Origin: Eubacteriales bacterium
Lineage (GTDB): Bacteria; Bacillota; Clostridia; Oscillospirales; CAG-382
NCBI GenBank assembly: GCA_045577455.1
Contig: JAZNIJ010000160.1
Location: 9,605-73,604 of the forward strand
Length of the DNA stretch: 64,000 nt
Direction: 5' to 3'
Every line of letters begins with the position of its first letter. Position 1 is the first letter of the stretch. This document shows, piece after piece, positions 1,935 to 63,932 of the stretch. The notes below the pieces were generated by a model. It was not told where the DNA came from and made no database searches. It worked only from the letters and a program-made list of their open reading frames with translations. Position numbers and translations under genes: made by a program.

Positions 1935-2406
1935 TCAATATCTCCCTCACTCTCTCAATATCGTTTCTTTCTAATGCTCGTTTTGCGCCGTCTATCAAAG
2001 TTACGAGCCGTGCGTTTCTTTCGGAGCGCTCCTTTACCAACTCTCGTAATCTATCGTTTGCTTCAACTAAGTCTGCCGGAATATCGTATCGCTCTAAGCC
2101 ATCGAACACATCCAACAGCTTCTTGCAATTTTCGCAACCACAGTTGCGGAGTTTGTATATGTTGTGTCCCATTCGCTTACGAATCGCCTTACTCTGCTCC
2201 ATGATTCTTACATCAAGCATAAGCAAATCGTAAGACTTCAAGATAAGCTGTTTCTCTCGTTTTGCACGTTCCTTGTTTACTGCACCGGATTTATAGTTCT
2301 GATACAGTAAACGGAATGTGAGAAACAGTAGTTGCTCGTGCATCGGTAAATCTTCGGGCATATCTGCATCCGATGCAGCGAGGCGTTCAATCTGTTCTGA
2401 TTTCAA
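1927..2406 (-). CDS. hypothetical phage protein
   Basis: 159-aa ORF in the co-directional, overlapping gene train. No recognisable motif. Confidence 0.5.
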   Translation of the reverse strand: MKSEQIERLAASDADMPEDLPMHEQLLFLTFRLLYQNYKSGAVNKERAKREKQLILKSYDLLMLDVRIMEQSKAIRKRMGHNIYKLRNCGCENCKKLLDVFDGLERYDIPADLVEANDRLRELVKERSERNARLVTLIDGAKRALERNDIERVREILNA

Positions 2407-2635
2407 AGGTAAACCCCCTCACTTCTTTAAGCACATTTTTTAACGCCTTTGCAACACTTTTTAGAGCTTTTGCTGCACACTTGGACGCTCTCACAAATTC
2501 GTTTTGCCCATACCACCGCCAATATGCTTTTTCGTATGGTACGTTATTCTTGTTGTATAAATTTGCCTTCGCCCTTGCTGAACGCGGTGTTTCGCCCCTC
2601 GACATAAGAAGTTTTATAAATCGTTTTCGTGTCAT
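2387..2635 (-). CDS. hypothetical phage protein
   Basis: Start taken at the internal Met (MTRKRFIKLLMSRG...), giving an ATGA overlap with the upstream stop at 2632. Confidence 0.4.
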   Translation of the reverse strand: MTRKRFIKLLMSRGETPRSARAKANLYNKNNVPYEKAYWRWYGQNEFVRASKCAAKALKSVAKALKNVLKEVRGFTFEIRTD

Positions 2636-2883
2636 TCCACAATCCCCCAATCCAAGGCTTGACCGCAATTTTCGCAACATTCAAATTTGTATTCGTTCTG
2701 ACCTAAAAAATCGCTTTTGCAATTCGGACATTTATACGATACAACGCGTCCGAACCTCATATCTATTTGCGGTAAAGGTTGTTTTTTTATCTGTTTCTCA
2801 ACCGCTTTCGTTAAAGCGATTTTAAATTCTAAATCACCTATGAACGTTTTATCAAGTTTGTCTAATACTTCTTCGTAGTTCAT
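2632..2883 (-). CDS. zinc-ribbon protein, phage
   Basis: 83 aa with CPNC...CCENC cysteine pairs. Confidence 0.5.
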   Translation of the reverse strand: MNYEEVLDKLDKTFIGDLEFKIALTKAVEKQIKKQPLPQIDMRFGRVVSYKCPNCKSDFLGQNEYKFECCENCGQALDWGIVE

Positions 2884-3065
2884 TTCTCCAACCTCTCAAT
2901 CAGCGCATACACGGTTTTTATTGCCTCGCTGTAACTCATGCTCTTTTCTGTGCTGATTTCAAGGTGAACAGCACCCACGAGTTTTCTGTTTGTGTTGCAT
3001 CCGTGAGCAACAGCTTTGAGTGCGAATAATTCTTCTTCTGTTATTTGTTGTTTTTTAGTTGCCAT
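2880..3065 (-). CDS. hypothetical phage protein
   Basis: 61-aa ORF that overlaps both neighbours by a few nt. Confidence 0.4.
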   Translation of the reverse strand: MATKKQQITEEELFALKAVAHGCNTNRKLVGAVHLEISTEKSMSYSEAIKTVYALIERLEK

Positions 3066-3393
3066 CGTTATCTCCTTTAACTATTTTTATTGCATCTTCT
3101 ACGGAACGAGCTATTCCTGCTCTGCATCCGTATTTGTTTTTCATCGTGTTTATGAAATTTAGCTGTTCAGTGGTGGGTCTGCCATGCTTTGCCTTAACCT
3201 CTACAAACGAAATGAGTCCGTCTTTGATAGCCACCAAGTCTGAAAACCCCTTCGGAACACCCACGTCAAACCACCTGCCGTCAGTCATTTTTACTTTGCC
3301 TGAGTTTATGCGGAATACACAGTAACCGAGTTCGGAGAGTGCAAGGCGTATGCTGTTTTGTATGTCGTGTTCGGTCACAATCCCATCCTCCAC
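3055..3393 (-). CDS. VRR-NUC domain nuclease
   Basis: 112 aa. GFSDLVAIKDGLISFVEVKAKHGRPT gives the D...E-x-K PD-(D/E)xK core in the VRR-NUC arrangement. Confidence 0.75.
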   Translation of the reverse strand: MEDGIVTEHDIQNSIRLALSELGYCVFRINSGKVKMTDGRWFDVGVPKGFSDLVAIKDGLISFVEVKAKHGRPTTEQLNFINTMKNKYGCRAGIARSVEDAIKIVKGDNDGN

Positions 3394-5663
3394 ATATATG
3401 CTCTATACTTTTCGGGTATCGGTATTCCATAGTTTCTTGCAAATCTGAAACACCACTGAAACTTATACCCTCTCGCTTTCTGTATCTTTATAACATCCTC
3501 CCACGTTTCCGCTTTGAGTTCGTTATAGTTTGCTTGCCTTATTTCCTCGTTCCGCTTCAACTCTACAAGGTCAACCTCAACTGTTTTTCTGTCCGTCTTT
3601 CTGATCTCGTGTGTTGCTTCTGCTCCACAGTACGGACATTTAGACAGAGTAGGGGAGTAAACCGCATAGCAAAGCTTGCACTCTCGTATTTTTACTATGT
3701 TTTCTTGCTTATGTTTCGGCTCTAAACTCCACTCTCGTTCATCATCGGGCAAGCCGTGTCTGTAACAGTTCCCAACGTGGTCTATGATTATTGCTGTCTT
3801 ATTCGGCATATATCGCATAGAACGCATTGATTGTTGGATGTGTAATGTGATGCTTTGCGTGGGGCGTAACAACACAACGCACTCACAATCCGGAACATCT
3901 AATCCCTCACCGAATAGCTCACAATTTACGAGTATAGTAATCTCACCGCTTCTAAAACGTTTCATGGCGTTCTCTCGCTCTGCCTGTGGCGTTTTTCCAT
4001 CAAGGGCAATACAACTATACCCTTCTGCTAAAAATCGCTCCGCGGTCTTTTTAGACGCTTCTACGGAAGCACAGTAAACAATGGTTTTCTTGCCCTCTGC
4101 AAGCCGCTTCCATTGCTTAACTGTGTCTCCATAGATTTCTTTGTGTTCCATAAGCTCTTTAACTTCATCTTGTTTGAACTCACCTGCCACTGTGTGCAAA
4201 GTGGATGTGTCTGCGAGTTTCACAGAGTAGTATTTATAGGTCGCAAGATAGCCGTTCTCAATTAGCCACTTTGTGCTGACGGACGTTATCAAGTCCGTGT
4301 AAATTTCACCGAGCCCCCCTTTATTCAAGCGAATGGGAGTTGCTGTGAATCCCAAGTGAATAACACCTGCATAATGGTCGTAAACCTTCTTATATGTATT
4401 TGCGGTGCTGTGGTGGCAGTTGTGTACTAAAATGCCGTTTGCGAAGTAGTTGTGGTTATCCTCGACTTCTAAATTGTAGACATAACCGTCTGTACACAAT
4501 CCTCCAAACGTTCCGTCACTTGTCGGTTGGTGAACCTCAACACGTTCCACCCTAACGAAGTTAAACAAAAATCTTTTTTCTTGTCTTGCTCCTGTCGCTC
4601 GATTGATAAATGACTTCCACCGTCTATCTCGATAGCGATCATTTTCTGTGGCAAGGCTATATCTATCTTGTAAGAAGTTGGATAGTTTGTCTCGTAAGGT
4701 TCTGCGTTTTGAGTAGGAACGGTAAACTCTGAGGCAGGGTTCAATGAACTCAACGCCATAAACATCTTTTCTTGCGGTACAGTCATACCTTTGCCGTTCC
4801 CACCTCTTATTCGAGGCTGATGCCCTATCCGTTTTAGCGTTTGTGCCATTTTCGCCCTTGTTTCTTTGCAGTGCATTGGATTGTTTCGTTTCATTCGTTG
4901 GCTTGCGTATTTCCTGTTTGTGTTTGCCATCGTTATGCTTGAAACCATAGCACAGTATTTTTTTGTACACTCGGTGCAACAATAGATTCTTCCTGTCTTT
5001 TTGTAAGCGTACAGCTTGTGCCGGATTTGATTTTTTGTCAGGTTGCTCAAATCCACCTGCTCCCCACACATCGTACAATAGTAGGTCTCTGACATAATCG
5101 CCCTCCTTTAACTCGATTGCTTCTTTATATCCGTCTCCGTGAACGTAGATAGGATGATTGAAAGTGCATTTTAAACACTTGCCGTTTGAAAGATGCACTT
5201 TTAACAAATTGCTTGGTTTCCGCTTGAAAATGTGAGTTATCCGCTTGGTTTCCACGACATCTTCTTTTTCGTTGTATGACCTTACGAGGTCTCCTTCTTT
5301 AAGAGCAGATATTGGTTTGCCATCAATCAAGGTATCTGCCGTGAAGCACTCGTCGGTAATAACGAGGTCATAGTTCGGGAGTTTCCCAAGTCTGCGTGAT
5401 ACTGTCTGCACCATTGATACATCACAGAGGTTCATATCAACTCCAACAGCTTTGAACGTGTTTGTTATCTGCTGGCACAATTCCTTGCGATGCACAAGGA
5501 AAAGAACTCTCTTGCCCTTATGTGTTACTTGCTTTGCGATGCTGCCCTGAATTACGGATTTCCCACCGCCACATCCGAGAACGGCAACAACAGAGTTATT
5601 GCCGCCACGGATAGAAGCGTATATGTCGCTGATTAGTTTTTCTTGATAGGGTCTGAGTCGCAT
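3375..5663 (-). CDS. SF2 DNA helicase (DEAD/DEAH, phage-type) interrupted by an intein
   Basis: RPYQ, Walker A GCGGGKS, motif II split as VITDE|intein|CHH, and C-terminal helicase motifs (LVNCELFGEGLDVPD, RPTQS). The extein is about 452 aa. Confidence 0.85.
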   Translation of the reverse strand: MRLRPYQEKLISDIYASIRGGNNSVVAVLGCGGGKSVIQGSIAKQVTHKGKRVLFLVHRKELCQQITNTFKAVGVDMNLCDVSMVQTVSRRLGKLPNYDLVITDECFTADTLIDGKPISALKEGDLVRSYNEKEDVVETKRITHIFKRKPSNLLKVHLSNGKCLKCTFNHPIYVHGDGYKEAIELKEGDYVRDLLLYDVWGAGGFEQPDKKSNPAQAVRLQKDRKNLLLHRVYKKILCYGFKHNDGKHKQEIRKPTNETKQSNALQRNKGENGTNAKTDRASASNKRWERQRYDCTARKDVYGVEFIEPCLRVYRSYSKRRTLRDKLSNFLQDRYSLATENDRYRDRRWKSFINRATGARQEKRFLFNFVRVERVEVHQPTSDGTFGGLCTDGYVYNLEVEDNHNYFANGILVHNCHHSTANTYKKVYDHYAGVIHLGFTATPIRLNKGGLGEIYTDLITSVSTKWLIENGYLATYKYYSVKLADTSTLHTVAGEFKQDEVKELMEHKEIYGDTVKQWKRLAEGKKTIVYCASVEASKKTAERFLAEGYSCIALDGKTPQAERENAMKRFRSGEITILVNCELFGEGLDVPDCECVVLLRPTQSITLHIQQSMRSMRYMPNKTAIIIDHVGNCYRHGLPDDEREWSLEPKHKQENIVKIRECKLCYAVYSPTLSKCPYCGAEATHEIRKTDRKTVEVDLVELKRNEEIRQANYNELKAETWEDVIKIQKARGYKFQWCFRFARNYGIPIPEKYRAYMWRMGL
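4419..5348 (-). mobile_element. intein (310 aa) inserted in helicase motif II
   Basis: Begins CFTADTLIDG (Cys1 codon at 5348-5346). Block B is CTFNHPIYV. Ends GILVHN, followed by the +1 Cys codon at 4418-4416. Excision restores DECHH. Confidence 0.75.
4469..5095 (-). CDS. DUF559/Vsr-like endonuclease nested in the intein, in a different reading frame
   Basis: 208 aa. N-terminal CTMC...CCTEC zinc ribbon. C-terminal KMIAIEIDGGSHLSIERQEQDKKKDFCLTSLGWNVLRFTNRQV, as in DUF559 endonucleases. Frame is offset from the helicase frame. Confidence 0.7.
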   Translation of the reverse strand: MSETYYCTMCGEQVDLSNLTKNQIRHKLYAYKKTGRIYCCTECTKKYCAMVSSITMANTNRKYASQRMKRNNPMHCKETRAKMAQTLKRIGHQPRIRGGNGKGMTVPQEKMFMALSSLNPASEFTVPTQNAEPYETNYPTSYKIDIALPQKMIAIEIDGGSHLSIERQEQDKKKDFCLTSLGWNVLRFTNRQVTERLEDCVQTVMSTI

Positions 5664-11632: not shown

Positions 11633-13180
11633 ATGAAAAAAGCAGTAATATACGCCCGATACTCCAGCCATAGTCAAAGAGAAGAATCCATAGAAGGACA
11701 ATTGAGAAAATGCTATGAGTTTGCAGAAAAAAACGAATTAACCGTTGTCGGAGAATATGTCGATAGAGCTATTTCGGGTAAAACCGATAACAGAGCCGAT
11801 TTTCAACGAATGATAAAGGACTCTGAAAAAGGTCTTTTTTCTGTTGTAATAATGTATACACTTGACCGTTTTGCAAGAAACAGATACGATTCTGCGATAT
11901 ATAAAGCAAAACTAAAAAAGAATGGTGTAAAAATCTTTTATACAGAACAATCGATAACAGATGAACCCGAAGGAATCATTCTTGAATCCCTTCTTGAAGG
12001 TATGGCGGAGTATTATTCAGAAAACCTTTCAAGAGGTGTAAAACGAGGTATGAAAGAAAACGCTTTAAAATGTATGATAACGGGTGGATATATGCCGTTG
12101 GGTTATCGAAAAACTGCCGACAAAAAATACGAAATAGACCCACGTACAGCACCTATCGTTAAGGAGATTTTTGAGCTTTATGTCAACGGAAAATCACAAA
12201 GGCAAATAGTAGATATCCTTAACGAAAAAGGATATCGAACGGCAATAGGGAAGCCCTTCAGAGTCGGAAGTATGACCTCAATTCTTACCAATAAAAAATA
12301 TATCGGTATATATGAATTTGACGATGTAGTTATCGAAAATGGCGTCCCTTCAATCGTAAGCAAAGAAACATTCTATAGGGTTCAGTCTATGCTCAAACAT
12401 AATAAGCGTTCTTCGGGAAGAATGAAAGGACCAATGCAATACTTGTTAACGGGGAAACTATTTTGTGGCAAATGCGGAAGCCAAATGGTGGGTGAAAGCG
12501 GAACGAGTAAAAACGGAACAATACACAACTATTACACTTGTGTTGACCGCAAAAGAAAGAAAACGTGTGATAAACGAAACGAAAGAAAAGAAATCCTCGA
12601 AAAAGCCGTTGTCACCACAACCATTGAAAATATTCTCAGACCCGAAACAATAGAATATATAGCAGAAAAAATAGTTGAAATAACAGAAAGAGAATTCAAC
12701 GATAAAAGCAGGGTGGAAGCATTAAACGCTCAATTAAAAGAAACTCAGTTATCAATCTCAAATTTATTAAAGCTTGTTGAAAAAGGAATCACAACAGACG
12801 ATATAAGCTCACGTTTGATGGAATTAAGTTCCGAAAAAAGCGACTTGCAAAAACAGATATATGTAGAAGAAATAAAAAAAACGTCAATAACAAAGGAAAG
12901 CATAATATATTGGCTCACAAACTTCATTAAAGACGGGTCAGTAGACGAAGAAGATTATCAACAAAGAATTATAGATACCCTCGTCAACAGAGTATATGTG
13001 TTTGATAACGATGACGGAAGCCGCAAACTTGTTATTACATATAATACAAGTGCTAAAAATTCTTCCACCATCACACTAAAAGATGCTGAATCCCTCTCTT
13101 CGTGTTCGGATGGTGCTGGTTTTGGTCCACCAAATAAAAAACAGCACTATGCGGGAGCATGGTGCTGTTTTTTGTTCTGA
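11633..13180 (+). CDS. large serine recombinase (integrase)
   Basis: AVIYARYSSHSQ catalytic-Ser resolvase domain, a recombinase domain, a CGKCG...YYTC zinc ribbon and a coiled-coil tail. The last ~13 codons run through a terminator hairpin. Confidence 0.9.
   Translation: MKKAVIYARYSSHSQREESIEGQLRKCYEFAEKNELTVVGEYVDRAISGKTDNRADFQRMIKDSEKGLFSVVIMYTLDRFARNRYDSAIYKAKLKKNGVKIFYTEQSITDEPEGIILESLLEGMAEYYSENLSRGVKRGMKENALKCMITGGYMPLGYRKTADKKYEIDPRTAPIVKEIFELYVNGKSQRQIVDILNEKGYRTAIGKPFRVGSMTSILTNKKYIGIYEFDDVVIENGVPSIVSKETFYRVQSMLKHNKRSSGRMKGPMQYLLTGKLFCGKCGSQMVGESGTSKNGTIHNYYTCVDRKRKKTCDKRNERKEILEKAVVTTTIENILRPETIEYIAEKIVEITEREFNDKSRVEALNAQLKETQLSISNLLKLVEKGITTDDISSRLMELSSEKSDLQKQIYVEEIKKTSITKESIIYWLTNFIKDGSVDEEDYQQRIIDTLVNRVYVFDNDDGSRKLVITYNTSAKNSSTITLKDAESLSSCSDGAGFGPPNKKQHYAGAWCCFLF
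13141..13174. terminator. intrinsic terminator (bidirectional) inside the 3' end of the recombinase ORF
   Basis: 12-bp stem ACAGCACTATGC/GCATGGTGCTGT with a GGGA tetraloop, then TTTTTT. An A-run on the left side makes it usable on both strands. Confidence 0.7.
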
Positions 13181-13186
13181 AGGTGA

Positions 13187-13274
13187 GGGGAGTCGAACGG
13201 GTTGGTAGTGAATGACAGTCCGGTGGACTGTCAGAGCCAACCCTGACCGAGCCCGCAGGCGAGACCGACTCCCC
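13187..13274. ncRNA. unclassified structured element, copy 1 (RNA or folded ssDNA; strand unresolved)
   Basis: Outer helix GGGGAGTCG/CGACTCCCC, helix GGGTTGG/CCAACCC, hairpin GACAGTC/GACTGTC. Covaries with copy 2. Confidence 0.5.
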
Positions 13275-13319
13275 ATTACTCGTCCTTTTCGCTTTCTCGA
13301 TATAGGGTGCTGTTCATAA

Positions 13320-13444
13320 GGGAGTCGAACGGGTGCGTGTAAGAAAAGTGCCCGGTGGACACTTTTCCCGCACCCTGACCGAGCAATTCGGGGTCCCCGC
13401 AAAACGGAGTTTTGTGGGGTGTGTTCAGGCGAGACCGACTCCCC
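13320..13444. ncRNA. unclassified structured element, copy 2
   Basis: Same skeleton as copy 1, with helix GGGTGCG/CGCACCC and hairpin AAAAGTG/CACTTTT. Carries an extra 11-bp hairpin at 13395-13419. Confidence 0.5.
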
Positions 13445-13463
13445 TCACTTCCACCAAAAAAGG

Positions 13464-13505
13464 TTGACAATTTGCCGTTTCAAAGGCAAGTTGTCAATTG
13501 TTTTA
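13464..13505. terminator. intrinsic terminator (bidirectional)
   Basis: TTGACAAtTTGCC / GGCAAgTTGTCAA stem, followed by TTGTTTTAT on the plus strand and by CCTTTTTTGG on the minus strand. Confidence 0.65.
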
Positions 13506-14136
13506 TATAAATTTTATAACAAAACAAAGGCGGTGTTGTAATTGAAAGAACCTTTTTTATTCCCTCGGAACGTTAATTCAAAAGAAATTCACGGAACAGA
13601 ATTACTGAAGCTTTCTGACAGCAATCATTATTGTTATTGAATTTATAATTTGTGTATTTATAATAATAAATATTTCGATTATTCATACATTAGCCCCTTT
13701 AGAATTATGTATTACCATAATATGCTTGCCCACTATATTTGACAAAGAGATATATAAAGCTGCATTATATGAGCATCAAATATGATTAAGGGGCTTGATA
13801 TATGAATTTTTGGAGAGTTTTTTATATAATAACATATTATTTTCCAAAAGTATTAGCCGGCAGCATAGAAAACCGATTTTTAAAAAACTTTTCAACAACA
13901 AAAAACACATTTTTTCAGTTAAATGGCGTTTATGGGAGTATAATTTTAATTTTTCCCCCCAATACACTTGACTTTCGGAAAGAAATTTTAAGCAGAAAAT
14001 GAGGTTTTCAAAAAACGGCATATGTAAATTATGAAACTTTTCCGAATGGTATTTATCATAAATAATGAGAAGAAATGCCCCATTATAAAACTTTAATAAT
14101 TCAAAGGTAACTTGACATAAATACAAAAAATTGGTA

Positions 14137-14165
14137 TTGACTTTAAATATAAAAGGTGATATAAT
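14137..14165 (+). promoter_or_regulatory. consensus sigma-A promoter of scfA
   Basis: TTGACT (14137-14142), 17-nt spacer ending in TGA, TATAAT (14160-14165). This is an extended -10. Confidence 0.75.
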
Positions 14166-14199
14166 AAAAATGCAAATAAAGGATACGGAGGAGATTTTT

Positions 14200-14370
14200 A
14201 TGAAGCATATCAAAACTTTAGCAACTCGCAATCTTTGCAAGAGTGCAAAAAACGGTGGCTGTGGCGAATGTCAGACATCTTGCCAATCCGCTTGTAAAAC
14301 AAGCTGCGGTATCGCAAACCAGAAATGCGAAAACGCAAAAGCTGTTAAAGCAGTTAAAGAATCCAAATAG
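14200..14370 (+). CDS. scfA: SCIFF (six-cysteines-in-forty-five) ranthipeptide precursor
   Basis: Start at the internal ATG 14200 after GGAGGAG. MKHIKTLATRNLCKSAKNGGCGECQTSCQSACKTSCGIANQKCEN matches the SCIFF consensus GGCGECQTSCQSACKTSC. Confidence 0.9.
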   Translation: MKHIKTLATRNLCKSAKNGGCGECQTSCQSACKTSCGIANQKCENAKAVKAVKESK

Positions 14371-14382
14371 TAAAGCAGAAAT

Positions 14383-14409
14383 ACCGCCACAAAACGGCGG
14401 TGTTTTTAC
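14383..14409 (+). terminator. hairpin/attenuator between scfA and scfB
   Basis: ACCGCC-acaaaac-GGCGGT followed by GTTTTTAC. This is a typical partial terminator after a precursor-peptide gene. Confidence 0.55.
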
Positions 14410-14543
14410 TAATAGTAAATTCTGTTTGGATAAATGCTTAAGTTTTGCTTTTAGTTTTGAATTTAAATGATATTGGCTTTGATAATTTAAAACAGAAAAC
14501 GAAAAAATTTTGAACGGTTTAAAACCGAATTGAATGAGGAAAA

Positions 14544-15911
14544 ATGATACATCAATATAAATTCGACAATTTGAATATTGTTCTTGACATATGCTCCGGC
14601 TCCGTTCATGTTGTTGATGAGGTTGCATATGATATAATTTCCATGTACGAAACCGCATCAAAAGAAGAAATAATTAAAAATATATCTGCAAGATACCCTG
14701 ATGTTACAGAAGGGGATATTCTTGAATGTTTAGAGCAGATAGAGGAACTGAAAGCGGAAGAGCTTCTTTTCGCGCCTGACACATTTGAAAATATGGCAGG
14801 TGAGCTTAAGCAAAAAACTTCGGGAGTTGTTAAGGCACTTTGCCTTCATGTTGCCCACACCTGCAACCTTAACTGTGCATACTGTTTTGCAAGTCAGGGT
14901 AAATACAAGGGCGAAAGGGCAATAATGTCCCTTGAAGTTGGAAAGCGTGCTTTGGATTTTCTTATCGAAAATTCGGGAACAAGGCATAACCTTGAAGTTG
15001 ACTTTTTTGGCGGTGAGCCACTTATGAATTTTGATATGCTGAAAGAGCTTGTTGCATACGCTCGCTCCATAGAAAAACAGCATAACAAAAATTTCAGATT
15101 CACATTAACAACAAACGGTTTGAATATCAATGACGAGGTTATAGAGTTTGCCAATAAGGAAATGTCCAATGTTGTTCTCAGCTTAGACGGACGAAAAGAG
15201 ATTCACGACAGATTCCGTGTTGACTACAACGGAAAGGGTAGCTGGGAAAGAATTGTTCCAAAATTCCAGAAGCTGGTTCAGGCAAGGGGCGGTAAGGATT
15301 ACTATATGCGTGGCACATTTACCCACGCTAACCCCGATTTTTTAAAGGACATAAGGGAAATGTTAAGGTTGGGGTTCAACGAGCTTAGCATGGAACCTGT
15401 TGTCTGTGCATCGGGCGACCCGTCGGAGCTTACTGCAGAGGATATGCCAATTGTTATGAAGCAGTATGAAGATTTGGCAAGATTGATGATAGAACGCAGA
15501 AAAGAGGGTAGACCCTTCACATTCTATCATTATATGATTGACCTCAAAGCAGGCCCTTGCATTTATAAACGCATATCGGGTTGCGGTTCGGGTACAGAAT
15601 ATATGGCTGTTACACCTTGGGGCGACCTTTACCCATGCCATCAGTTTGTTGGTGATGAAAAATTCAAATTGGGCGATATCTGGAACGGTGTTACCAACGG
15701 TGGAATAAGAAACGAATTTATGTCCTGTAATGTTTATGCAAGGGAAGAATGTAAGGACTGCTGGGCAAAGCTCTATTGTTCAGGCGGCTGTGCCGCAAAT
15801 GCATACCACGCAACCGGCTCTGTTAAAGGGGTTTACAAATACGGCTGTGAGCTTTTCAAAAAGCGTATGGAATGTGCCATAGCGGTTGCCGCTTCCGAGG
15901 AAGAAGAATAA
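14544..15911 (+). CDS. scfB: SCIFF radical SAM maturase (SPASM domain)
   Basis: CNLNCAYC (CX3CX2C) radical-SAM cluster. C-terminal CKDCWAKLYCSGGCAANAYH SPASM cysteines. Adjacent to scfA. Confidence 0.9.
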   Translation: MIHQYKFDNLNIVLDICSGSVHVVDEVAYDIISMYETASKEEIIKNISARYPDVTEGDILECLEQIEELKAEELLFAPDTFENMAGELKQKTSGVVKALCLHVAHTCNLNCAYCFASQGKYKGERAIMSLEVGKRALDFLIENSGTRHNLEVDFFGGEPLMNFDMLKELVAYARSIEKQHNKNFRFTLTTNGLNINDEVIEFANKEMSNVVLSLDGRKEIHDRFRVDYNGKGSWERIVPKFQKLVQARGGKDYYMRGTFTHANPDFLKDIREMLRLGFNELSMEPVVCASGDPSELTAEDMPIVMKQYEDLARLMIERRKEGRPFTFYHYMIDLKAGPCIYKRISGCGSGTEYMAVTPWGDLYPCHQFVGDEKFKLGDIWNGVTNGGIRNEFMSCNVYAREECKDCWAKLYCSGGCAANAYHATGSVKGVYKYGCELFKKRMECAIAVAASEEEE

Positions 15912-17376: not shown

Positions 17377-19116
17377 ATGAAAAATTCAAAACATTTGTTT
17401 CATAGCAAGTCGAAAGAGTTGGAAAATCATAACGAAGAATTGGTTGATGCCAATTCCCATACCCATATGCATAAAGAACATAATTTTTCAAAGTCTGCCC
17501 TTGCTCTTGCCCTTGCAATGGCAATTCCGCTTAGTGGATGCGGTGGAGATAACACCGATGATTCGTCGAGCGAGCAACCTGCAATTTCAGAAGAAATTTC
17601 TGATGAAGTTAATGTTTCCGAAGATGCAACTGCTTCTGAAGATGCAACTGCTTCTGAAGATGTAACTGCTTCTGAGGATGTAACCGTTTCTGAGGATGTA
17701 ACTGTTTCTGAGGATGTAACTGTTTCTGAAGATGTTTCCGAAGAAGTGAGCGACGAGCCGTCAGTAGGTACAGGTATCACCCTCAGTGAGAAAAACGGCA
17801 GTGTAACTCTTGAACCGACGGAGATAACTCTTGATAAATCAACTCTTTCACTCTCTGTAGGTGGAAAGGGGACATTAAGCACAACCGTTAAATACGAAAC
17901 AGCAACAGTGACCTTTACGGCAACAACTCAGAACGGTGAAGCGGTAACCGTTATAACGGATAACGAAAATGTTGCAACTGCTGTTGTGAAAGCAAACGGA
18001 AATGTAAACGAAATAACCGTAACCGCAAAAAGCAAGGGAAAAGCAACAATTAAAGTAACATCGGGTGGAGCGACTGCAAAATACATTCTTACAGTTAGTG
18101 AAAATAATGCTGTTGAGTGGACAAGCTCGTCGGCATCCGTTGCAACGGTTTCAAACGGTTCAGTGAGTGGAAAATCAAGTGGCAGTGCAGTGATTACCGC
18201 AAAAACCAAAAACGGAAAAACGGCAAGTTGCAATGTTACAGTTACAGCAGAAGAAAAAAGCTTTGAGCTTGGTGACGGTGTTAACGCTAAAATCACAGGC
18301 ACTACCTTGACAATAAGCGGAAACGGATCAATGCCCGACTATTCCAAATGGGCAAAAACCCCTTGGAAGGATGCAAAAATCAAGAATATCGTTATTGACA
18401 GCGGAGTAACGGGAATCGGTGACAGAGCGTTTATGGGATGCACAACGCTGGAAAGCGTAACGATACCCGAAACTGTAACAAAAATAGGGTGGCACGCGTT
18501 CAGCGATTGTTCTTCCCTTAAGAGTATACTTATACCCAAAAGTGTAACAAGTATCGGTTCTTCCTGCTTTGAATATTGCAGTGGACTTGAAAGCATAACC
18601 GTAGACAAGGGTAACCCTGTATATTGCAGTGAGGGTAACTGCTTGTATATTTTAGCAACAAAAATTTTGATTTACGGTTGTAAAAACAGCGTTATACCGT
18701 CAAATGGAAATGTAACGAGAATAGGTGATGACTCTTTCCGTGGTTGTTCGTCCCTTAAGAGCATAACTATCCCCGAAACAATTGAGAGTATCGGCTGGTA
18801 TGCGTTTTGCGACTGTACGTCACTTTCAAAAATAACGCTTCCTCAATCCCTTGAGAGTATAGACGATAGTGCGTTTTACGGTTGTACGGCGCTTAAAAGT
18901 ATTACCATACCAAAAAATGTGTCAACAATTATGTTCGGAGCGTTCTGGGGCTGTTCGGCACTTGAATCCGTAACATTTGAGAATACGGAAAATTGGTATG
19001 TGACCAAAACGGAACATTCCAAAAAGGGCGAGGATATAGCTGTTGAAGATAAATCCAAAATGGCTAAATGGCTTACAGATACATATTTTGAATATTATTG
19101 GTACAGAAAAAAATAA
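17377..19116 (+). CDS. lipoprotein with Big_2-like domains and a BspA-type leucine-rich-repeat (LRR_5) module
   Basis: Lipobox LSGC after a hydrophobic stretch. (SEDxTx)n repeat. Repeated ...SVTIPxxVTxIGxxAFxxCxxL... units. Ends with the WYVTKT...YYWYRKK module tail. Confidence 0.8.
   Translation: MKNSKHLFHSKSKELENHNEELVDANSHTHMHKEHNFSKSALALALAMAIPLSGCGGDNTDDSSSEQPAISEEISDEVNVSEDATASEDATASEDVTASEDVTVSEDVTVSEDVTVSEDVSEEVSDEPSVGTGITLSEKNGSVTLEPTEITLDKSTLSLSVGGKGTLSTTVKYETATVTFTATTQNGEAVTVITDNENVATAVVKANGNVNEITVTAKSKGKATIKVTSGGATAKYILTVSENNAVEWTSSSASVATVSNGSVSGKSSGSAVITAKTKNGKTASCNVTVTAEEKSFELGDGVNAKITGTTLTISGNGSMPDYSKWAKTPWKDAKIKNIVIDSGVTGIGDRAFMGCTTLESVTIPETVTKIGWHAFSDCSSLKSILIPKSVTSIGSSCFEYCSGLESITVDKGNPVYCSEGNCLYILATKILIYGCKNSVIPSNGNVTRIGDDSFRGCSSLKSITIPETIESIGWYAFCDCTSLSKITLPQSLESIDDSAFYGCTALKSITIPKNVSTIMFGAFWGCSALESVTFENTENWYVTKTEHSKKGEDIAVEDKSKMAKWLTDTYFEYYWYRKK
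17617..17739 (+). repeat. 18-bp coding tandem repeat (SEDATA/SEDVTV), about 6.8 units
   Basis: tccgaagatgcaactgct and its variants, repeated head to tail. Confidence 0.85.
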
Positions 19117-20924: not shown

Positions 20925-20942
20925 ATGGAGGAATGTACATTT

Positions 20943-23900
20943 ATGCAAAGGAAAAACATGAAAAAAATATCTGTTCTGTTGCTTTTCAGCATTTTAATTT
21001 CCTTGTTTTCCAATGTTGTTTCAGCGTTAAAAGTAAACGGTGAAGCCGTGGAAAGCGTTGGACAAGCTACGCAACAGGATGTGACAATTGGTGAGATTTC
21101 GCAAGATGAAACCCTTGAAACGGGTGATAATGCTGAAGGATTTTTAGCAAACAGCACCTTTAGGTATGGAGTAACACCTGAAAATGATGTTACCTTGTTG
21201 ATGAGTGAAAAAACGGTTTTTTCTGAGTTTAAACAAAAACTCGGTTCAGATAAGGTGCTGAATATCACAAGAGACGGCAGTGAAATACCGTCAGACGATA
21301 TTATCAGAACAGGAGATATTATTTCAATTAACGGTGAAGAATCCATAGCCGAGGTTATTGGGGACGTTGACGGAGACGGCATTATAACTTCAACGGATTA
21401 TCTTCAGATAAAAAAATACTTTCTTAAAACCTTCGACCTTGAAGGTGCGTATTTTTCGGCAGGAGATACGGACAATAACGGTAATATAAATTCAACCGAC
21501 TATATTCAGGTTAAATCATACTTTTTAAAGATTTATAACTTTTTTGAGGTTGAAACAGAGATTGAGGAAACATTGGCAGAAGAAATGTTTCTTCCCAAAT
21601 GTGGCAATGATTTTTCGTTCCTCGTGAATTTCAACGGCAGTTTGTCGGAGCTTTTGGAAAATGTAAAAGTATATCATGTTGTTGATGATGTAAATATACC
21701 TGTAAATTACTCTGTGGCTGTTGACGGTGAATCTGTTTATAGAATCTCACCTGAAACTACATATGAAAATTATGAGATATATACGGTAGAATTGTCGGGA
21801 GACGCTTCTTTTGTCGATTACAAAGCCAAAAGTATAACTTTTGAAGTTGGCGGCCCCGATAAAGAAAATATTGACTTCGAAAATAATATAATCTTTTTGA
21901 AGAATTTAGAGAGTTTAAGCCCGGGTTATTATCCTTATACAATAAGCTTTGACGAAGAAAAAGAGCTGTATACCCTCACTCTTTCCAAGGGGGACGGATT
22001 TACAGACGAGCTTATAGGAAAAATATTAGCCGTTGGAGATTATTCATCTGAAGCAGAGGTGTTGGCTGATTCTTCAAAGGAGCTTTACTTTGGTAAAATT
22101 CAAAAAATATATCAGTCAGGCAAAAGCACAATTGTTGAAATGACAGCTCCTGAACTTGACGAGCTTTTTGCAACCCTTGATGTGTTTACAAATCAGTATT
22201 CGGGTGATATGGCAATTGAGTTTAATGAAGATTTAGAAAACGAAATTGTTGGAGCAATTCAGGAAAGTGATGCATTTGTTGAGCATATCGCAGCAGCAAA
22301 CCTTGCGGCTAAAGATTATGCACTTGAACATGGCGTTGTTGCCGTGGATTTGGTTGGAAAATCCTTTAAGGATTATTTCGATTTTGAATTAACAAAAAAA
22401 GAGTTCATGCATCATGACGGTGGATATTGTACAGTGGATATTGAAGGGAAGCTCACTTGTACTATTCCTTTGAAAACAACAGGCGGTACGGATGTAGGCA
22501 GTATAAAAATCACTTGCACCGCAGGTATAAAGTCTGATATCTGGTTTTACGGTCATTGTAATACCAAAGATATGCATTTGGGAGTTACAACCAAAACAAC
22601 CGTAACTCTTGGTTTTAACTTAACGATTAAAGCAGAAGCATCTTTAAATGATGAGATGCACTATTATGTAAACAGAACAACGAAAACCATACATACATCA
22701 ACTTGCCGTTATGTTGAGAAAGTGATAGATGTATCTCATATGGATGTATACACAGCAAAGGCATTGCTGAATCTATACCCCGATATGGATGCAATGAAAA
22801 AAGACGAGTGTAAAGTATGTAAGGCAGTATCGGGACTTGATGGCACAGCGTATGTTCTTAATATCAGCTCAAATACATTGCATTGCCTGAACTGTATACA
22901 TGTCACCACCATAGCAAACCACAATGTTTTTGAAATATATCCCGAGCACGTAGACGGTTATAATCTTTGCGAGGATTGCAAGCCGCAGGAAAGAGAAGCA
23001 AAAGACTTTGAACAGAGAATGCTTAACAGAATGCAGGGCGGCGATTGGGCGGCAGAGGTGGAAAAGCTCCGTTCGTTAATGCAAAACAGCGGAAACGCAT
23101 CTAACGGAAACGGCAAAGGAATGGATATAGGCGAAGTGCCGTTTAAGTTCTTAGGTGTTTTCGATTTCAGATTAACGTTAGAGCTTGTTTGTAACTTTGA
23201 CCTTGAAGCAACTATCGATTGTTCTTTTACCTTCTATTCGGAAGACCAATTTGGCGTCAGAGTAGACCATAAAAATTCAAGTACATATCATAATCAGGTT
23301 GATAAATGGGATAAAAAAACAATTGATGTAACGGGCAAGGTTGACCTTGAATTAGGGTTGAATATCCATATAAACGCAAGTATAATAGGTCTCAAGGATT
23401 GCATAAGCGTATATTTGGATGCAGGAACAGGTGTGTATGCAATGCTTTCGGGCGTTTTGCATTTTGAAAGCGGAACTGCGGAAAACTTGGATAATTATTA
23501 TGCCGCTTATTTTGAAATGGGATTCTATTATGATATTAGTGGCGGTTTCAAGCTCTTTAAATGGGGTAAAGAAATAACTATCATAGAAGGCAGAGTTCCT
23601 ATTTTGCAACGTGGTTATGAGAGAGCATATTATTCTTTTGAAAATTATGCTCCAACTTTGGATATCACTTTTAATTATACCCATTTGGGAAATACCGATG
23701 TTTTAGGCGTTGAATACTTCAATGTAAAAGAGTTGAAAAAAGAAACAGCAAAGTTAAACCCCGAAGGCGACGCACAGTATTATGTGAAATACGCTTTCAA
23801 AAATGCAGACGGAACAATAAATCCATATTTCAGTTACGGTCAGGGTGGTATCAAGATTTCCGACGATGCACCCAAAACATTTACCGCATATATGGAAATT

Positions 23901-26036
23901 ACAGTTGTTCCAAAGTATGCACCTGTTTCAAGTATGTCAGAGTTTTTGTCGCAAGATTATAAAAACGGCTCTTCCGTTTTCTTCCTCGATACTTTGACAG
24001 TGGAATTGAATGTGAAAGATGTAGGTTTAAGAGTAGATTATTATTTAGATCCATTAAAGGCAAATCTGACAGACGGCGTTTTGACAATCTGGGGCAAAGG
24101 TGATATGCCCGATTATTCGTCTTATTCTGATGTGCCGTGGTATAATGAAAGAGAGAAAATTACTAAGGTTGTTATAAAAAAAGGAGTAACAAGTATCGGA
24201 GATTGTGCTTTTGCTCTTTGCTCATACCTTGCGAGCATAACCATCCCAGACAGCGTAACAAGTATAGGGGATTATGCTTTCTGTTGGCGCGACTCTCTTG
24301 CGAGCATAACCATCCCTGACAGCGTAACAAGTATAGGGGATTATGCTTTCTTTAGTTGCGACTCCCTTGTAAGCGTAACCATCCCCGACAGCGTAACAAG
24401 TATAGGGGATTATGCTTTCGCTAATTGTTCCTCCCTTGCAAGCATAGTAGTATCAAGTGGAAATAAGGTATATCACAGTAAGAATAACTGTTTGATTGAA
24501 ACCAAAACCAAAATCTTAATAAAAGGTTGTAAAAACAGTATTATTCCAACAGACGGCAGCGTAACAAGTATAGGGGATTCGGCTTTCTATAGTTGCGACT
24601 CCCTTGTAAGCATAAACATCCCCGACAGCGTAACAAGTATAGGGGATGGTGCTTTCGGCTGGTGCGACGCTCTTGCAAGCATAACCATACCCGACAGCGT
24701 AGCAAGTATTGGGAGCGACGCTTTTTCTGGTTGCACGTCTCTTGCAAGCATAACCATACCGAAAAGCGTAATGAGTATAGGGTGGGGTGCTTTCGATGAT
24801 TGCGTTTCTCTTGAAAGTGTAATATTTGAAAATCCAAACGGATGGTATGTAACAAAAACAAATGGCGAATCAAGCGGAACAAAGGTTACAGTAACAAATA
24901 AATCCACCGCTGCGGATTATTTAACCGATACATACGAGTTCTACTATTGGTATCGCAATAGTGATTCGGGAAAAAATTATGATTTAGCTCCATTAAAGGC
25001 AAATCTGACAGACGGCGTTTTGACAATCTGGGGTGAAGGTGATATGCCTGATTATTCGTCTAATATTGATGTGCCGTGGTATAATGAAAGAGATAAAATT
25101 ACTGAGGTTGTAATTATGAATGGGGTTACAAGTATAGGGGATTATGCTTTTTATAGTTGCGACTCCCTTGAAAGCATAACCAGCGGAGACAGCGTAACAA
25201 GTATAGGGGATAGTGCTTTCGAGGATTGCTACTCCCTTGAAAGCATAACCATCGGAGACAGCGTAACAAGTATAGGGGATAGTGCTTTCGCTGGTTGCGT
25301 CTCTCTTGTAAGCGTAACCATCCCCGACAGCGTAAACAGTATAGGGGATAGAGCTTTCGCTTGTTGCGCCTCACTTGCAAGCGTAACCATCCCCGACGGT
25401 GTAACAAGTATAGGGGATTGTGCTTTCGACTGTTGCTACTCTCTTGAAAACATAGTAGTATCAAGTGGAAATAAGGTGTATCACAGTACAAATAACTGTT
25501 TGATTGAAACATCAACCAAAACCTTAATATTAGGGTGTAAAAACAGCGTTATTCCAACAGACGGTAGCGTAACAAGTATAGGGGATAGTGCTTTCTGTGG
25601 TTGCGACTCCATTACAAGCATAATCATACCCGAAGGCGTAACGAGTATAGGGGATAATGCTTTCACTTATTGCTTCTCCCTTGTCAGCATAACCATCCCT
25701 GACAGCGTAACAAGTATAGGGGATTGGGTTTTCGCTTATTGTTCCTCCCTTGTAAGCATAAACATCCCCGACAGCGTAACAAGTATAGGGGATGGTGCTT
25801 TCGGCTGGTGCGACGCTCTTGCAAGCATAACCATACCCAACAGCGTAACAAGTATAGGATATGGCGCTTTCTATGGTTGCTCTTATCTTGAAAGTGTAAT
25901 ATTTGAAGATCCTTACGGATGGTATGTAACAAATACAAAGGGCGTATCAAGCGGGGTTACCGTAACAAACAAATCCACTGCTGCGGATTATTTAACCAAT
26001 ACATACTGCTGGTACTACTACTGGGATCGCAAATAA
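20943..26036 (+). CDS. giant secreted protein (about 1697 aa): dockerin + large central region + two BspA-type LRR_5 modules
   Basis: GGAGG lies 12 nt before ATG 20943; ATG 20958 is an alternative start. Signal peptide MKKISVLLLFSILISLFSNVVSA. Carries a dockerin and two modules LKANLTDGVLTIWG...YYWYR/YYWDRK. Confidence 0.85.
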   Translation: MQRKNMKKISVLLLFSILISLFSNVVSALKVNGEAVESVGQATQQDVTIGEISQDETLETGDNAEGFLANSTFRYGVTPENDVTLLMSEKTVFSEFKQKLGSDKVLNITRDGSEIPSDDIIRTGDIISINGEESIAEVIGDVDGDGIITSTDYLQIKKYFLKTFDLEGAYFSAGDTDNNGNINSTDYIQVKSYFLKIYNFFEVETEIEETLAEEMFLPKCGNDFSFLVNFNGSLSELLENVKVYHVVDDVNIPVNYSVAVDGESVYRISPETTYENYEIYTVELSGDASFVDYKAKSITFEVGGPDKENIDFENNIIFLKNLESLSPGYYPYTISFDEEKELYTLTLSKGDGFTDELIGKILAVGDYSSEAEVLADSSKELYFGKIQKIYQSGKSTIVEMTAPELDELFATLDVFTNQYSGDMAIEFNEDLENEIVGAIQESDAFVEHIAAANLAAKDYALEHGVVAVDLVGKSFKDYFDFELTKKEFMHHDGGYCTVDIEGKLTCTIPLKTTGGTDVGSIKITCTAGIKSDIWFYGHCNTKDMHLGVTTKTTVTLGFNLTIKAEASLNDEMHYYVNRTTKTIHTSTCRYVEKVIDVSHMDVYTAKALLNLYPDMDAMKKDECKVCKAVSGLDGTAYVLNISSNTLHCLNCIHVTTIANHNVFEIYPEHVDGYNLCEDCKPQEREAKDFEQRMLNRMQGGDWAAEVEKLRSLMQNSGNASNGNGKGMDIGEVPFKFLGVFDFRLTLELVCNFDLEATIDCSFTFYSEDQFGVRVDHKNSSTYHNQVDKWDKKTIDVTGKVDLELGLNIHINASIIGLKDCISVYLDAGTGVYAMLSGVLHFESGTAENLDNYYAAYFEMGFYYDISGGFKLFKWGKEITIIEGRVPILQRGYERAYYSFENYAPTLDITFNYTHLGNTDVLGVEYFNVKELKKETAKLNPEGDAQYYVKYAFKNADGTINPYFSYGQGGIKISDDAPKTFTAYMEITVVPKYAPVSSMSEFLSQDYKNGSSVFFLDTLTVELNVKDVGLRVDYYLDPLKANLTDGVLTIWGKGDMPDYSSYSDVPWYNEREKITKVVIKKGVTSIGDCAFALCSYLASITIPDSVTSIGDYAFCWRDSLASITIPDSVTSIGDYAFFSCDSLVSVTIPDSVTSIGDYAFANCSSLASIVVSSGNKVYHSKNNCLIETKTKILIKGCKNSIIPTDGSVTSIGDSAFYSCDSLVSINIPDSVTSIGDGAFGWCDALASITIPDSVASIGSDAFSGCTSLASITIPKSVMSIGWGAFDDCVSLESVIFENPNGWYVTKTNGESSGTKVTVTNKSTAADYLTDTYEFYYWYRNSDSGKNYDLAPLKANLTDGVLTIWGEGDMPDYSSNIDVPWYNERDKITEVVIMNGVTSIGDYAFYSCDSLESITSGDSVTSIGDSAFEDCYSLESITIGDSVTSIGDSAFAGCVSLVSVTIPDSVNSIGDRAFACCASLASVTIPDGVTSIGDCAFDCCYSLENIVVSSGNKVYHSTNNCLIETSTKTLILGCKNSVIPTDGSVTSIGDSAFCGCDSITSIIIPEGVTSIGDNAFTYCFSLVSITIPDSVTSIGDWVFAYCSSLVSINIPDSVTSIGDGAFGWCDALASITIPNSVTSIGYGAFYGCSYLESVIFEDPYGWYVTNTKGVSSGVTVTNKSTAADYLTNTYCWYYYWDRK
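21360..21536 (+). other. dockerin type I module inside the giant protein
   Basis: Duplicated Ca-binding loops DVDGDGIITSTDYLQIKKYF and DTDNNGNINSTDYIQVKSYF. Confidence 0.8.
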
Positions 26037-63626: not shown

Positions 63627-63932
63627 TGTTTAAAACCTCCGTGAACTGTTTTGCATTTATGCCCTGTGGCATACCTAATGGATTTGTGTTATTGAAATAG
63701 GGTAATGGGGGATAGCCCCATATCTCTCTGAAAAGTAAAAAAACAAAAAATTCATCGCCCCAACGGTTGAAATATGAAATTAAATTCACCACAGAAACCG
63801 CATTAAAGCGTTTGTTCTTAAAGTGAAATAACCCAAATGATTGAATTGTTAAATGAAATTTACCACATTTGCGAAGCAAATATTTCACATTTCGCAGAAA
63901 TGTTTCACTTGCCCGAAGGGAAAATTTTACTG

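Follow-up and report, generated by a model that had tools for sequence, protein, structure and literature searches.

We analysed a stretch of 64,000 nucleotides (nt) from an Eubacteriales bacterium (GenBank assembly GCA_045577455.1, contig JAZNIJ010000160.1, positions 9,605 to 73,604 of the forward strand; hereafter the window), in which two neighbouring units, A (13187-13274) and B (13320-13444), are built on one common three-way-junction skeleton. These units are real members of a multi-copy family without prior description, comprising at least 60 copies in about 40 species-level genomes, which lie directly behind tRNA or transfer-messenger RNA (tmRNA) genes and carry both a direct and an inverted copy of part of the 3' end of those genes. 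The best explanation, which we put forward tentatively, is that the units are the folded sites of small cassettes, usually lacking an open reading frame (ORF), that integrate at the T-loop of tRNA and tmRNA genes.

A reading of the DNA alone (the sequence-only reading) had described two copies of one skeleton with shared blocks and compensatory changes in two helices, had held the fold to be selected, and had been able to fit it to no known class; all of this is borne out. Alignment of the two copies gives the common blocks GGGAGTCGAACGGGT, CCGGTGGAC, CCCTGACCGAGC, and CAGGCGAGACCGACTCCCC, and the differences between A and B in helices P2 and P3 are compensatory. A 19-mer has two sites in the window, both in the units, where none is expected. 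On the plus strand the predicted folding energies are −47.9 kcal/mol for A (z −5.4) and −60.1 kcal/mol for B (z −4.0), the minus strand gives z scores of −4.5 and −5.6, respectively, and none of 200 shuffles folds as well as A or B.

In order to find homologues, we scanned one genome per GTDB species with the pattern TCGAACGGG-N25-55-CCCTGACCGAG. The scan gave at least 120 matches, and the family figures are lower bounds. About 75 of the matches listed are chance ones in high-GC genomes, and at least 48 units in 44 sources, namely 43 loci of metagenome-assembled genomes (MAGs) and the window, passed a helix filter. The MAGs are labelled Clostridia, 'Eubacteriales', Oscillospiraceae, Ruminococcus, or Lachnospiraceae and come from gut and rumen (human, deer, sheep, goat, and other guts). 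A covariance model, R1, was built on 38 of the filtered units; applied to these loci and the window it gave 62 matches, 55 of them above 60 bits, in arrays of up to five units. In all, more than 55 full-length copies exist besides the window pair. The modules are three-way junctions of about 86 nt, longer where stem II is expanded, and their GC content is about 60-70% against roughly 38% for the genome. Three arm types can be distinguished, with the internal loop UAGUGAAU/AGAG in type A, UGUAAG/CC in type B, and a divergent loop in type C. The window holds one type A and one type B unit; type B arms also occur in loci L017, L034, L070, L075, L089, L104, and L114, and type C arms in L017 and L083.

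The family alignment of 38 sequences shows that the fold is under selection. Standard pairs fill 94.8% of the cells (97.7% over the 8 core pairs of P1), whereas slid-partner controls are paired in 23-50% of cells. Both sides have changed in 14 of the 27 pairs, including 7 of the 8 pairs of P3, and none of 500 shuffled alignments reached the observed covariation, so that homologues with covariation do exist beyond the two window copies. Since the search pattern prescribed the words TCGAACGGG and CCCTGACCGAG, these are invariant by ascertainment; it left free the helices, the GAGA behind stem II, and the P3 apex CC-GGU/GGG/AGU-GG. The third arm, described earlier as variable, does vary in size, but it is in fact a covarying stem with a conserved closing block, C-G / G.A / A.G / G-C (CGAG...CGAG). 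As had been said of the window copies, wobble pairs do not settle the strand: the family alignment has 26 G.U against 11 A.C, 17 of the G.U fall in one column, and no bias is left once that column is set aside. The units of the family are co-oriented with the tRNA or tmRNA gene upstream, so that plus is the sense strand of the locus.

No known family accounts for the units. At the gathering thresholds of Rfam 15 the only match in the whole window is a Gut-1 RNA 50 kb away, a scan of 13050-13550 at E ≤ 10 returned only microRNA-type noise outside or across the units, and a scan of seven homologous loci at E ≤ 5 left the units without any above-threshold family. ARAGORN found no tRNA or tmRNA in the window and, on the 43 loci, called the upstream genes and never the units; likewise, the Rfam tRNA (RF00005) and tmRNA (RF00023) models match only the upstream genes. 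The permuted-tmRNA model RF04321 gives sub-threshold matches that span a tmRNA 3' end and the next unit (L081 168-438 (+), L116 1926-2044 (−), L004 656-767 (−); at most 32.7 bits, gathering threshold 47), and annotation pipelines could mis-flag such loci. Pairing of the loop CCGGUGG with an NCCA end, as in a T-box, was rejected because the loop variants GGU, GGG, and AGU are independent of discriminator and tail type. Our literature search found no account of this family and no precedent for the linkage to tRNA/tmRNA 3' ends. An 84-bp motif, HMP2_734, is termed 'novel tmRNA' in one report (PMC8040213) and might overlap with this family.

Searches of mobile DNA were equally negative. BLAST of the units against 50,697 GenBank phage records gave no match; in IMG/VR (2.9 million viral contigs) a strict three-block pattern had no match and the family pattern had four chance-like ones, the best scoring 20.8 bits against R1. 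On these results we rejected a phage-borne attP element. The unit was not found among the PLSDB plasmids either, and we rejected an origin from a plasmid or an integrative and conjugative element on that ground.

The position of the units is highly regular. On the 43 loci ARAGORN placed a tRNA or tmRNA gene just 5' of the unit and on the same strand, and in 34 of 35 loci gene and unit are separated by 36-63 nt (median 52). The upstream genes of the 35 loci encode tmRNA (10), tRNA-Ser (10), tRNA-Glu (6), tRNA-Gln (5), tRNA-Ala (2), tRNA-Val (1), and tRNA-Arg (1), the tRNAs being nearly all minor isoacceptors, most with C34. The gap contains a terminator-like hairpin and T-run, and the T-run lies no more than 45 nt upstream in 45 of 53 units. 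The earlier remark that the window pair leaves no room for a promoter is correct, and correct family-wide; together with the upstream T-run, this argues against an independent RNA gene.

The outer helix and the sequence behind it derive from the upstream gene. The 3' strand of P1 and the tail that follows repeat the 3' end of the gene from C56/G57 in the T-loop to CCA, exactly so in most first units, and 35 loci have an intact target gene with a direct repeat of its 3' segment downstream. In L034, L086, and L120 the copy extends through the terminator. The T-loop 3' half and the T-stem 3' strand recur in inverted orientation as the 5' strand of P1; hence P1 combines an inverted and a direct copy of the T-arm, and it varies with the target gene (GGGATTCG, GGGAATCG, GGGAGTCG, GGGGATCG, GGGGCTCG). 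About 40% of tails are truncated or degenerate, with intact cores. Other tRNA fragments are found near units in L007 (160-290) and L120 (1713-1890); they are partial copies of tRNA-Ser with no three-way junction, running in L120 from the anticodon arm to the 3' end, and indicate that these loci were hit repeatedly by other integrating elements. In a miniature unit of L068 (6560-6640 (+)), P3 and the greater part of P2 are missing; the 5' flank GTCTCGG complements the acceptor strand CCGAGAC of the tail, which is followed by ACCA, giving a closing stem like that of a tRNA minihelix with a 7-nt linker, ATATGGA.

Several further features favour cassettes joined at the boundary between core and tail, namely arrays, cargo, similarity within genomes, orthologous loci, and mismatched arms. 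The arrays comprise 2-5 units. In L043, which has five, the final, outermost copy is clearly degraded, and the unit scores of L068 fall with distance from the tmRNA gene. Successive units in L017 have unrelated terminators, and in L083 a helix-turn-helix (HTH) gene lies between two tail copies as cargo. The unit of L001 (5370-5455) directly follows a defence-type island (1827-5280 (+)) with an N6/N4 DNA methylase bearing an SNase domain, an MjaI-like restriction endonuclease, and an AAA_21/AbiEii-like ATPase; the tail of this unit is a tRNA-Ser 3' end, and the 5.3 kb upstream contain no tRNA gene. Over variable columns, units of the same type at different tRNA genes of one MAG have identities of 0.73-0.93, compared with an average of 0.61 for units from different MAGs. 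The orthologous loci L034 and L057 share P1, the junctions, and stem II and differ by a swapped P2-P3 arm (type B and type A, respectively), and their synteny breaks exactly after the tail.

The mismatched arms were seen by comparing the 12-nt 5' arm with the gene 3' end and with the unit's own tail. The gene was the better match in 11 loci, the worse in 2, and an equal one in 16. In L081, for example, the gene has GATT, the arm complements GATT, and the tail has GACT; the arm of L114 is a perfect 13-nt complement to the tRNA-Gln gene and not to the tail; and L068 has tails of different specificity, CGACGACCCGAGACACCA, with the cognate arm GGTCGTCG 2.4 kb away. This is the pattern expected if the crossover lies between core and tail, as between R' and R'' of integron attC sites.

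The window pair can be read in the same way, although a prophage makes its locus less simple. That the 3' strand of the outer helix of unit B and its flank, CGACTCCCCTCACTTCCACCA, copy a tmRNA-type 3' end had been overlooked by the sequence-only reading. This 21-mer has exact matches in 40 metagenome stretches, where according to ARAGORN a tmRNA gene ends exactly on it in 20 and a tRNA-Ala gene in one; none of the 40 stretches sharing this 3' end contains a unit. A tRNA-Ala(cgc) gene is one of 20 tRNA genes within 3 kb of a metagenome contig (L164, 121-3082 (−)), and since its 3' end has the same 21 nt as the tmRNA genes and the window tail, the upstream target in the window could be tRNA-Ala rather than ssrA. 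The 5' arm of unit A holds an inverted copy of the T-loop 3' half, the T-stem 3' strand, and some of the acceptor strand. When reverse-complemented (CGACTCCCCTCAC(C)TTC), this arm agrees with the canonical tail over 13 nt and with the 3' flank of unit A itself over only 9 nt, and the degenerate tail of unit A is possibly, as judged by eye, a decayed tmRNA 3' end copy. The complementarity noted earlier between the 5' flank of copy 1 and the 3' flank of copy 2 is thus present, but it is due to this inverted copy of the tmRNA 3' end.

The pair had also been taken as a feature of a prophage junction, a view that does not survive the comparison with other loci: there are no convincing phage or plasmid copies, and in other genomes units immediately follow tRNA or tmRNA genes in the absence of any phage. 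In the window a large serine recombinase, the prophage integrase, precedes the units. Its ORF has no stop before the att core and takes its last 17 codons from the host terminator, so that the free-phage and prophage proteins should differ at the C-terminus. The integrase of L075 (44% identity over 499 aa) occupies the same position relative to a unit, and its ORF likewise runs past the core and on through the unit, ending in TCACCAAA, which matches the tail of that locus. The putative crossover core TCCACCA mimics the last bases of the tmRNA/tRNA-Ala 3' end, and the same 7-mer ends the tail of unit B (13450-13456). The GTCCACC at 13125-13131, once proposed as a pairing partner of the loop GGTGGAC, is no such partner but this putative integrase crossover core, which mimics the same 3' end. 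From 13126 on, the window aligns with the ssrA 3' end, terminator, spacer, and unit of five other loci, and 13132 is separated from 13187 by 54 nt, compared with the family median of 52 nt between tRNA end and unit. The core match, the L075 parallel, the alignment, and the spacing indicate a prophage integrated at the 3' end of ssrA, a gene that would lie beyond the left edge of the window. We conclude from these sequence comparisons that ssrA was probably the prophage target, tRNA-Ala being less likely, and that the DNA right of about 13133 would be host DNA, making the units host-chromosomal and the prophage incidental. The flanking terminators reported before are indeed present on both sides of the pair; the first, flanked by an A-run, is probably of host origin and would ordinarily terminate the tmRNA gene. 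The order at this locus would then be tmRNA (or tRNA-Ala) gene, prophage, terminator, unit A, unit B, tail, and terminator, the prophage being an element in its own right, inserted by its large serine integrase at the TCCACCA terminus of that gene.

Table 1 Features of the window locus (P1 to P3, helices; R1, family covariance model).
Feature	Position	Strand	Basis
Large serine recombinase (prophage integrase), 515 aa	11633-13180	+	Pfam Resolvase, Recombinase, and Zn_ribbon_recom
TCCACCA, putative attR crossover core, phage DNA to the left and host DNA to the right	13126-13132	+
Hairpin and T-run, flanked by an A-run and hence bidirectional in appearance	13136-13173	+	Read by eye
Unit A 5' arm, GAAGGTGA and GGGGAGTCG	13179-13195	+	Inverted copy of tmRNA-type 3' end
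Unit A, type A	13187-13274	+	Fold; 110.1 bits against R1
Unit A P1	13187-13195 with 13266-13274	+	Fold, coordinates
Unit A junction AAC	13196-13198	+
Unit A P2	13199-13206 with 13236-13243	+
Unit A internal loop, UAGUGAAU/AGAG
Unit A P3	13214-13221 with 13225-13232	+
Unit A junction UGACCGAG	13244-13251	+
Unit A stem II	13251-13260	+
Unit A GAGAC	13261-13265	+
Unit A 3' arm and degenerate tail (CGACTCCCC ATTACTCGTCC...)	13266-13290	+	By-eye comparison with 13436-13456
Unit B, type B	13320-13444	+	Fold; 69.6 bits against R1
Unit B P1	13320-13327 with 13436-13443	+
Unit B P2	13331-13337 with 13369-13375	+
Unit B internal loop, UGUAAG/CC
Unit B P3	13344-13353 with 13357-13366	+
Unit B junction UGACCGAG	13376-13383	+
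Unit B enlarged stem II arm	includes hairpin 13390-13422	+
Unit B GAGAC	13431-13435	+
Unit B P1 3' strand and tail, CGACTCCCCTCACTTCCACCA	13436-13456	+	Direct copy of tmRNA (or tRNA-Ala) 3' end, T-loop ~56 to CCA
Second hairpin and T-run, terminator-like, closing the locus	13462-13504	+	Terminator scan: 15 pairs, tail GTTTTATATA

If the units are the folded sites of integrated cassettes, each module would mark the distal end of a cassette lying in the T-loop of a tRNA or tmRNA gene. Such a cassette would begin with a replacement 3' end for the gene (T-loop to CCA), a terminator, and a short purine-rich spacer, and would end with the inverted T-loop/T-stem 3' strand (the 5' arm of P1) and the core (P2-P3 arm, UGACCGAG, stem II, and GAGA). 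Recombination at ...GAGAS|CGA(N)TCCC would insert the cassette and displace the original 3' end of the gene, which would become the tail, and repeated events or unequal crossing-over could generate tandem arrays. Recombination probably takes place at the folded junction, read as single-stranded DNA by a recombinase acting in trans, with P1 recreating a duplex T-arm half-site. By analogy with integrons, the T-loop would play the role of attI and the unit that of attC, the tail would be the exchanged core, and the 5' arm the inverse core travelling with the cassette. Membership of a family, covariation, the steady linkage and spacing to tRNA/tmRNA genes, the architecture of direct and inverted repeats, the arrays, and the likeness of units within genomes are observed. 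We infer the mobility of the cassettes, their action at the DNA level, and the recombinase; the possibility of a folded single-stranded DNA or att-related site, raised by the sequence-only reading, comes close to this explanation.

Several observations weigh against integration of this kind. The roughly 35-40 conserved junction nucleotides, the loop resembling a kink-turn (K-turn), and the tandem G.A are more like an RNA than a recombination site, and part of the conservation is ascertainment from TCGAACGGG and CCCTGACCGAG. A cassette arriving at a new tRNA must carry that tRNA's own 3' end, a demand that the proposed mechanism does not account for, and the excess of arm-gene over arm-tail matches could also come from neutral decay of the tails. 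All-against-all BLAST clustering of the ORFs within 4 kb of the 44 loci revealed no recurrent recombinase or reverse transcriptase; serine recombinases, which had been named as neighbours to look for in particular, do not recur near the units. The ORF families that do recur there are SmpB-sized proteins upstream of tmRNA and HTH proteins (only the L075 member being confirmed by Pfam), and the nearest downstream ORFs are, judged by eye from sequence, ordinary host genes. Neither an empty site nor a circular junction nor a presence/absence polymorphism was seen among the relatives retrieved. As for these relatives, exact-protein look-ups with three window proteins gave no record, a search with the SCIFF maturase gave one relative at 97% protein identity (L165), whose contig stops short of the unit region and which has an AAA_14 gene within the stretch aligning to the window, and relatives at 85% identity have no synteny with the window locus.

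Should integration as cassettes prove true, the units would represent a new miniature integrative element in Firmicutes and a natural recombination site defined by its fold, the second such case after integron attC and CTX-phi. They would also account for recurrent assembly breaks behind tRNA genes in gut MAGs and mark hot-spots that gather defence islands and prophages.

The main rival, which we consider possible though rather unlikely, is a host structured non-coding RNA made by read-through of tRNA/tmRNA terminators, serving for example as a protein-binding module or as a processing or decoy element, with a closing helix of T-arm sequence and a tail that is a by-product of the origin of the locus. 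Strong covariation together with conserved unpaired strands is what such an RNA would display, as are the high pairing of the P1 core and the position of the units, which always lie on the sense strand between a highly expressed gene and a second terminator. By inspection, the type A loop fits the K-turn consensus (C-stem, 3-nt bulge, G.A/A.G) with the pattern GG(U) AGU GA AU ... A GA (G)CC, a tandem G.A block sits at the base of stem II, and the GC content contrasts with that of the genome as in stable RNAs. On the other side, the K-turn-like loop is missing from types B and C, as far as its sequence goes, and the terminal loops do not belong to the GNRA or UNCG types often met in structured RNAs. 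A promoter is missing, and most units have a hairpin and T-run immediately upstream. The truncated or degenerate tails behind intact cores mean that a tRNA-like CCA end is dispensable, the G.U excess over A.C vanishes with the one column, and a role as RNA would by itself leave the direct and inverted repeat tie to the target unexplained. If this rival is true, the family would be a widespread unannotated structured RNA tied to tRNA/tmRNA 3' ends. Under either explanation a covariance model is merited, and annotators should not take the units as prophage att features.

The remaining alternatives are much weaker. It is improbable that the units are inert relics, that is, functionless attR remnants (integrase arm plus tRNA fragment) left by decayed islands or prophages. 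tRNA and tmRNA genes are classic integration hot-spots, tRNA fragments do lie near units in L007 and L120, and a prophage separates target gene and units in the window and in L075; nevertheless, a spacing of 36-63 nt with an identical left boundary in 34 of 35 loci is not what random deletions would produce, selection on pairing is evident from compensatory changes at 14 of 27 pairs, and the 2.9 million viral contigs contain no convincing copy. Similarly, there is very little to expect from a variant hammerhead-like self-cleaving ribozyme that, from its sequence, might cut read-through or array transcripts at ...UCGAAC|GGGU to unit length. The strand order is that of a type III hammerhead (stem I (P2-P3), CUGAcCGAG, stem II, CGAgA, stem III (P1), AAC, stem I), L093 reads CGAAAC, and the tandem arrays recall satellite hammerheads, but no Hammerhead model matched at E ≤ 10 in the window or at E ≤ 5 in the seven loci. 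Moreover, C3 is not free and closes P2, an extra C-G pair separates the N7/A14 and G8.A13 layers, the A15.1-U16.1 pair is absent, three junction nucleotides replace the single one of hammerheads, and four of the five L043 copies have G (AAG) at the position corresponding to C17. Finally, an unusual tRNA/tmRNA-like gene, pseudogene, or fragment (for example part of a permuted or split tmRNA, or a minihelix subject to aminoacylation or to RNase P processing) is hardly credible: the 3' end is identical to tRNA/tmRNA up to CCA, the 5' flank in the window lengthens P1 to about 15 bp and leaves CACCA overhanging, and tmRNA_permuted scores a sub-threshold 32.7 bits, yet ARAGORN and the Rfam tRNA/tmRNA models pass over the units, most loci lack the acceptor 5' strand, D arm, and anticodon arm, many units keep the core without the acceptor/CCA part, and the T-stem 3' strand, 7-nt acceptor strand, discriminator, and CCA, present as a fragment at 13436-13456, confer no tRNA/tmRNA membership.

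Elsewhere in the window, the genes before the integrase encode an S24/HTH repressor, a PDDEXK protein, methylases, a helicase with an intein, and other phage replication functions; the helicase (3375-5663 (−)) is of the SNF2/DEAD type, with Intein_splicing and PT-HINT domains between its helicase motifs. To the right of the units lies a six-cysteines-in-forty-five (SCIFF) peptide locus (14100-15911 (+)), the radical-SAM gene of which (14544-15911) has homologues named thioether cross-link-forming SCIFF maturase and relatives with a 54-aa precursor just upstream. In L165, the relative at 97% identity, an AAA_14/DUF4143 ATPase gene is inserted upstream; the window has none there. Two BspA-type leucine-rich-repeat surface proteins are encoded at 17377-19116 (+) and 20925-26036 (+), the larger having 1703 aa and a type I dockerin; the dockerin protein and the GC content of about 38-40% point to a Ruminococcus-like host bearing a cellulosome or amylosome. 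The Gut-1 RNA (RF01706) of the window scores 53.7 bits at 63853-63932 (−), and L016 has two Gut-1-like matches 60-250 nt from its unit (1556-1637 (+) and 1678-1752 (−); 39.4 and 33.6 bits, respectively, below the gathering threshold).

Among known systems, group I introns also occupy the tmRNA T-loop, mainly in Bacillota (PMC11915505). As in these introns, a foreign structured sequence interrupts a tmRNA-type T-loop context; unlike them, the unit interrupts a duplicated 3' fragment rather than a functional gene, measures 70 nt against more than 200, and has neither a group I core nor an Rfam Intron_gpI match. With type III hammerheads the units share the three-way junction, the strand order, the words CUGA..GAG and CGA.A, the tandem G.A base of stem II, and a long looped stem I facing a short stem II, but they break the core rules (C3, inserted C-G, A15.1-U16.1, 3-nt junction, C17 that can be G). 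Hammerhead identity was rejected because these rules failed on inspection of the alignments and Rfam gave no match. The attP(+) site of CTX-phi and other folded single-stranded DNA substrates resemble the units in that two inverted segments anneal into a duplex recombinase site with the tip between them. The duplex here is only 8-15 bp, amounting to one T-arm half-site, a single-stranded DNA stage is hypothetical, and nothing ties the units to XerCD/dif.

The attL/attR fragments that islands and prophages leave at tRNA/tmRNA genes are closer. There, too, the distal repeat copies the gene 3' end from the T-loop, the targets are single-copy minor tRNAs and ssrA, elements accrete in tandem, and the gene is kept intact by a replacement 3' end supplied by the element; serine-recombinase islands at ssrA in Dehalococcoides (PMC3146451) and the T-loop attB of mycobacteriophage Ms6 (PMC1762012) are cases in point, and the prophage of the window, with its serine integrase at a 3' end, is an ordinary example. 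The elements described here differ in being about 150 bp long without an integrase, which only the separate prophages of the window and L075 encode, in having as att-proximal arm a covarying folded module with an inverted T-arm half, and in being absent from the phage and plasmid collections searched.

The most extensive likeness is to integron attC sites, which are imperfect inverted-repeat modules of 57-141 nt at the distal end of cassettes, keep the structure of the arm more than its sequence, and allow cassettes to stack at one attachment site. In both systems the end of the site repeats the attachment core in direct orientation, and the 5' inverse core is part of the cassette; as this inverse core travels with the cassette, arms can mismatch the adjacent 3' partner, as they do in L081, L114, L068, and unit A of the window. 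The differences are that no IntI-type integrase lies within 4 kb of the 44 loci (whole genomes were not searched), that the R''/R' consensus RYYYAAC/GTTRRRY is replaced by a 5' arm NTCGAAC and a 3' arm GAGAS-CGANTCCC with no GTT, that the attachment site is a tRNA/tmRNA T-loop, that most cassettes lack an ORF and bring along a tRNA 3' end and a terminator, and that the core forms a three-way junction in which about 35 nucleotides are conserved. Integrons are not known from Firmicutes. The arrays and core repeats that define integron cassettes are found here as well, which is a formal analogy only. It is possible, if doubtful, that the units belong to an integron-like system of gut and rumen Clostridia without a known integrase. 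Its cassettes, ORF-less or with small cargo, would be recognised by a folded three-way-junction DNA site resembling half a T-arm and would insert one after another into T-loops of ssrA and of non-essential tRNA genes, each supplying a new 3' end and a terminator. Such a system would mean a class of miniature site-specific mobile element that has so far gone unrecognised, and a folded-DNA attachment site of a new type. In summary, we tentatively rate the family as tRNA-gene-targeted integrative DNA with structure-defined sites, with a substantial chance that it represents something more distinct.

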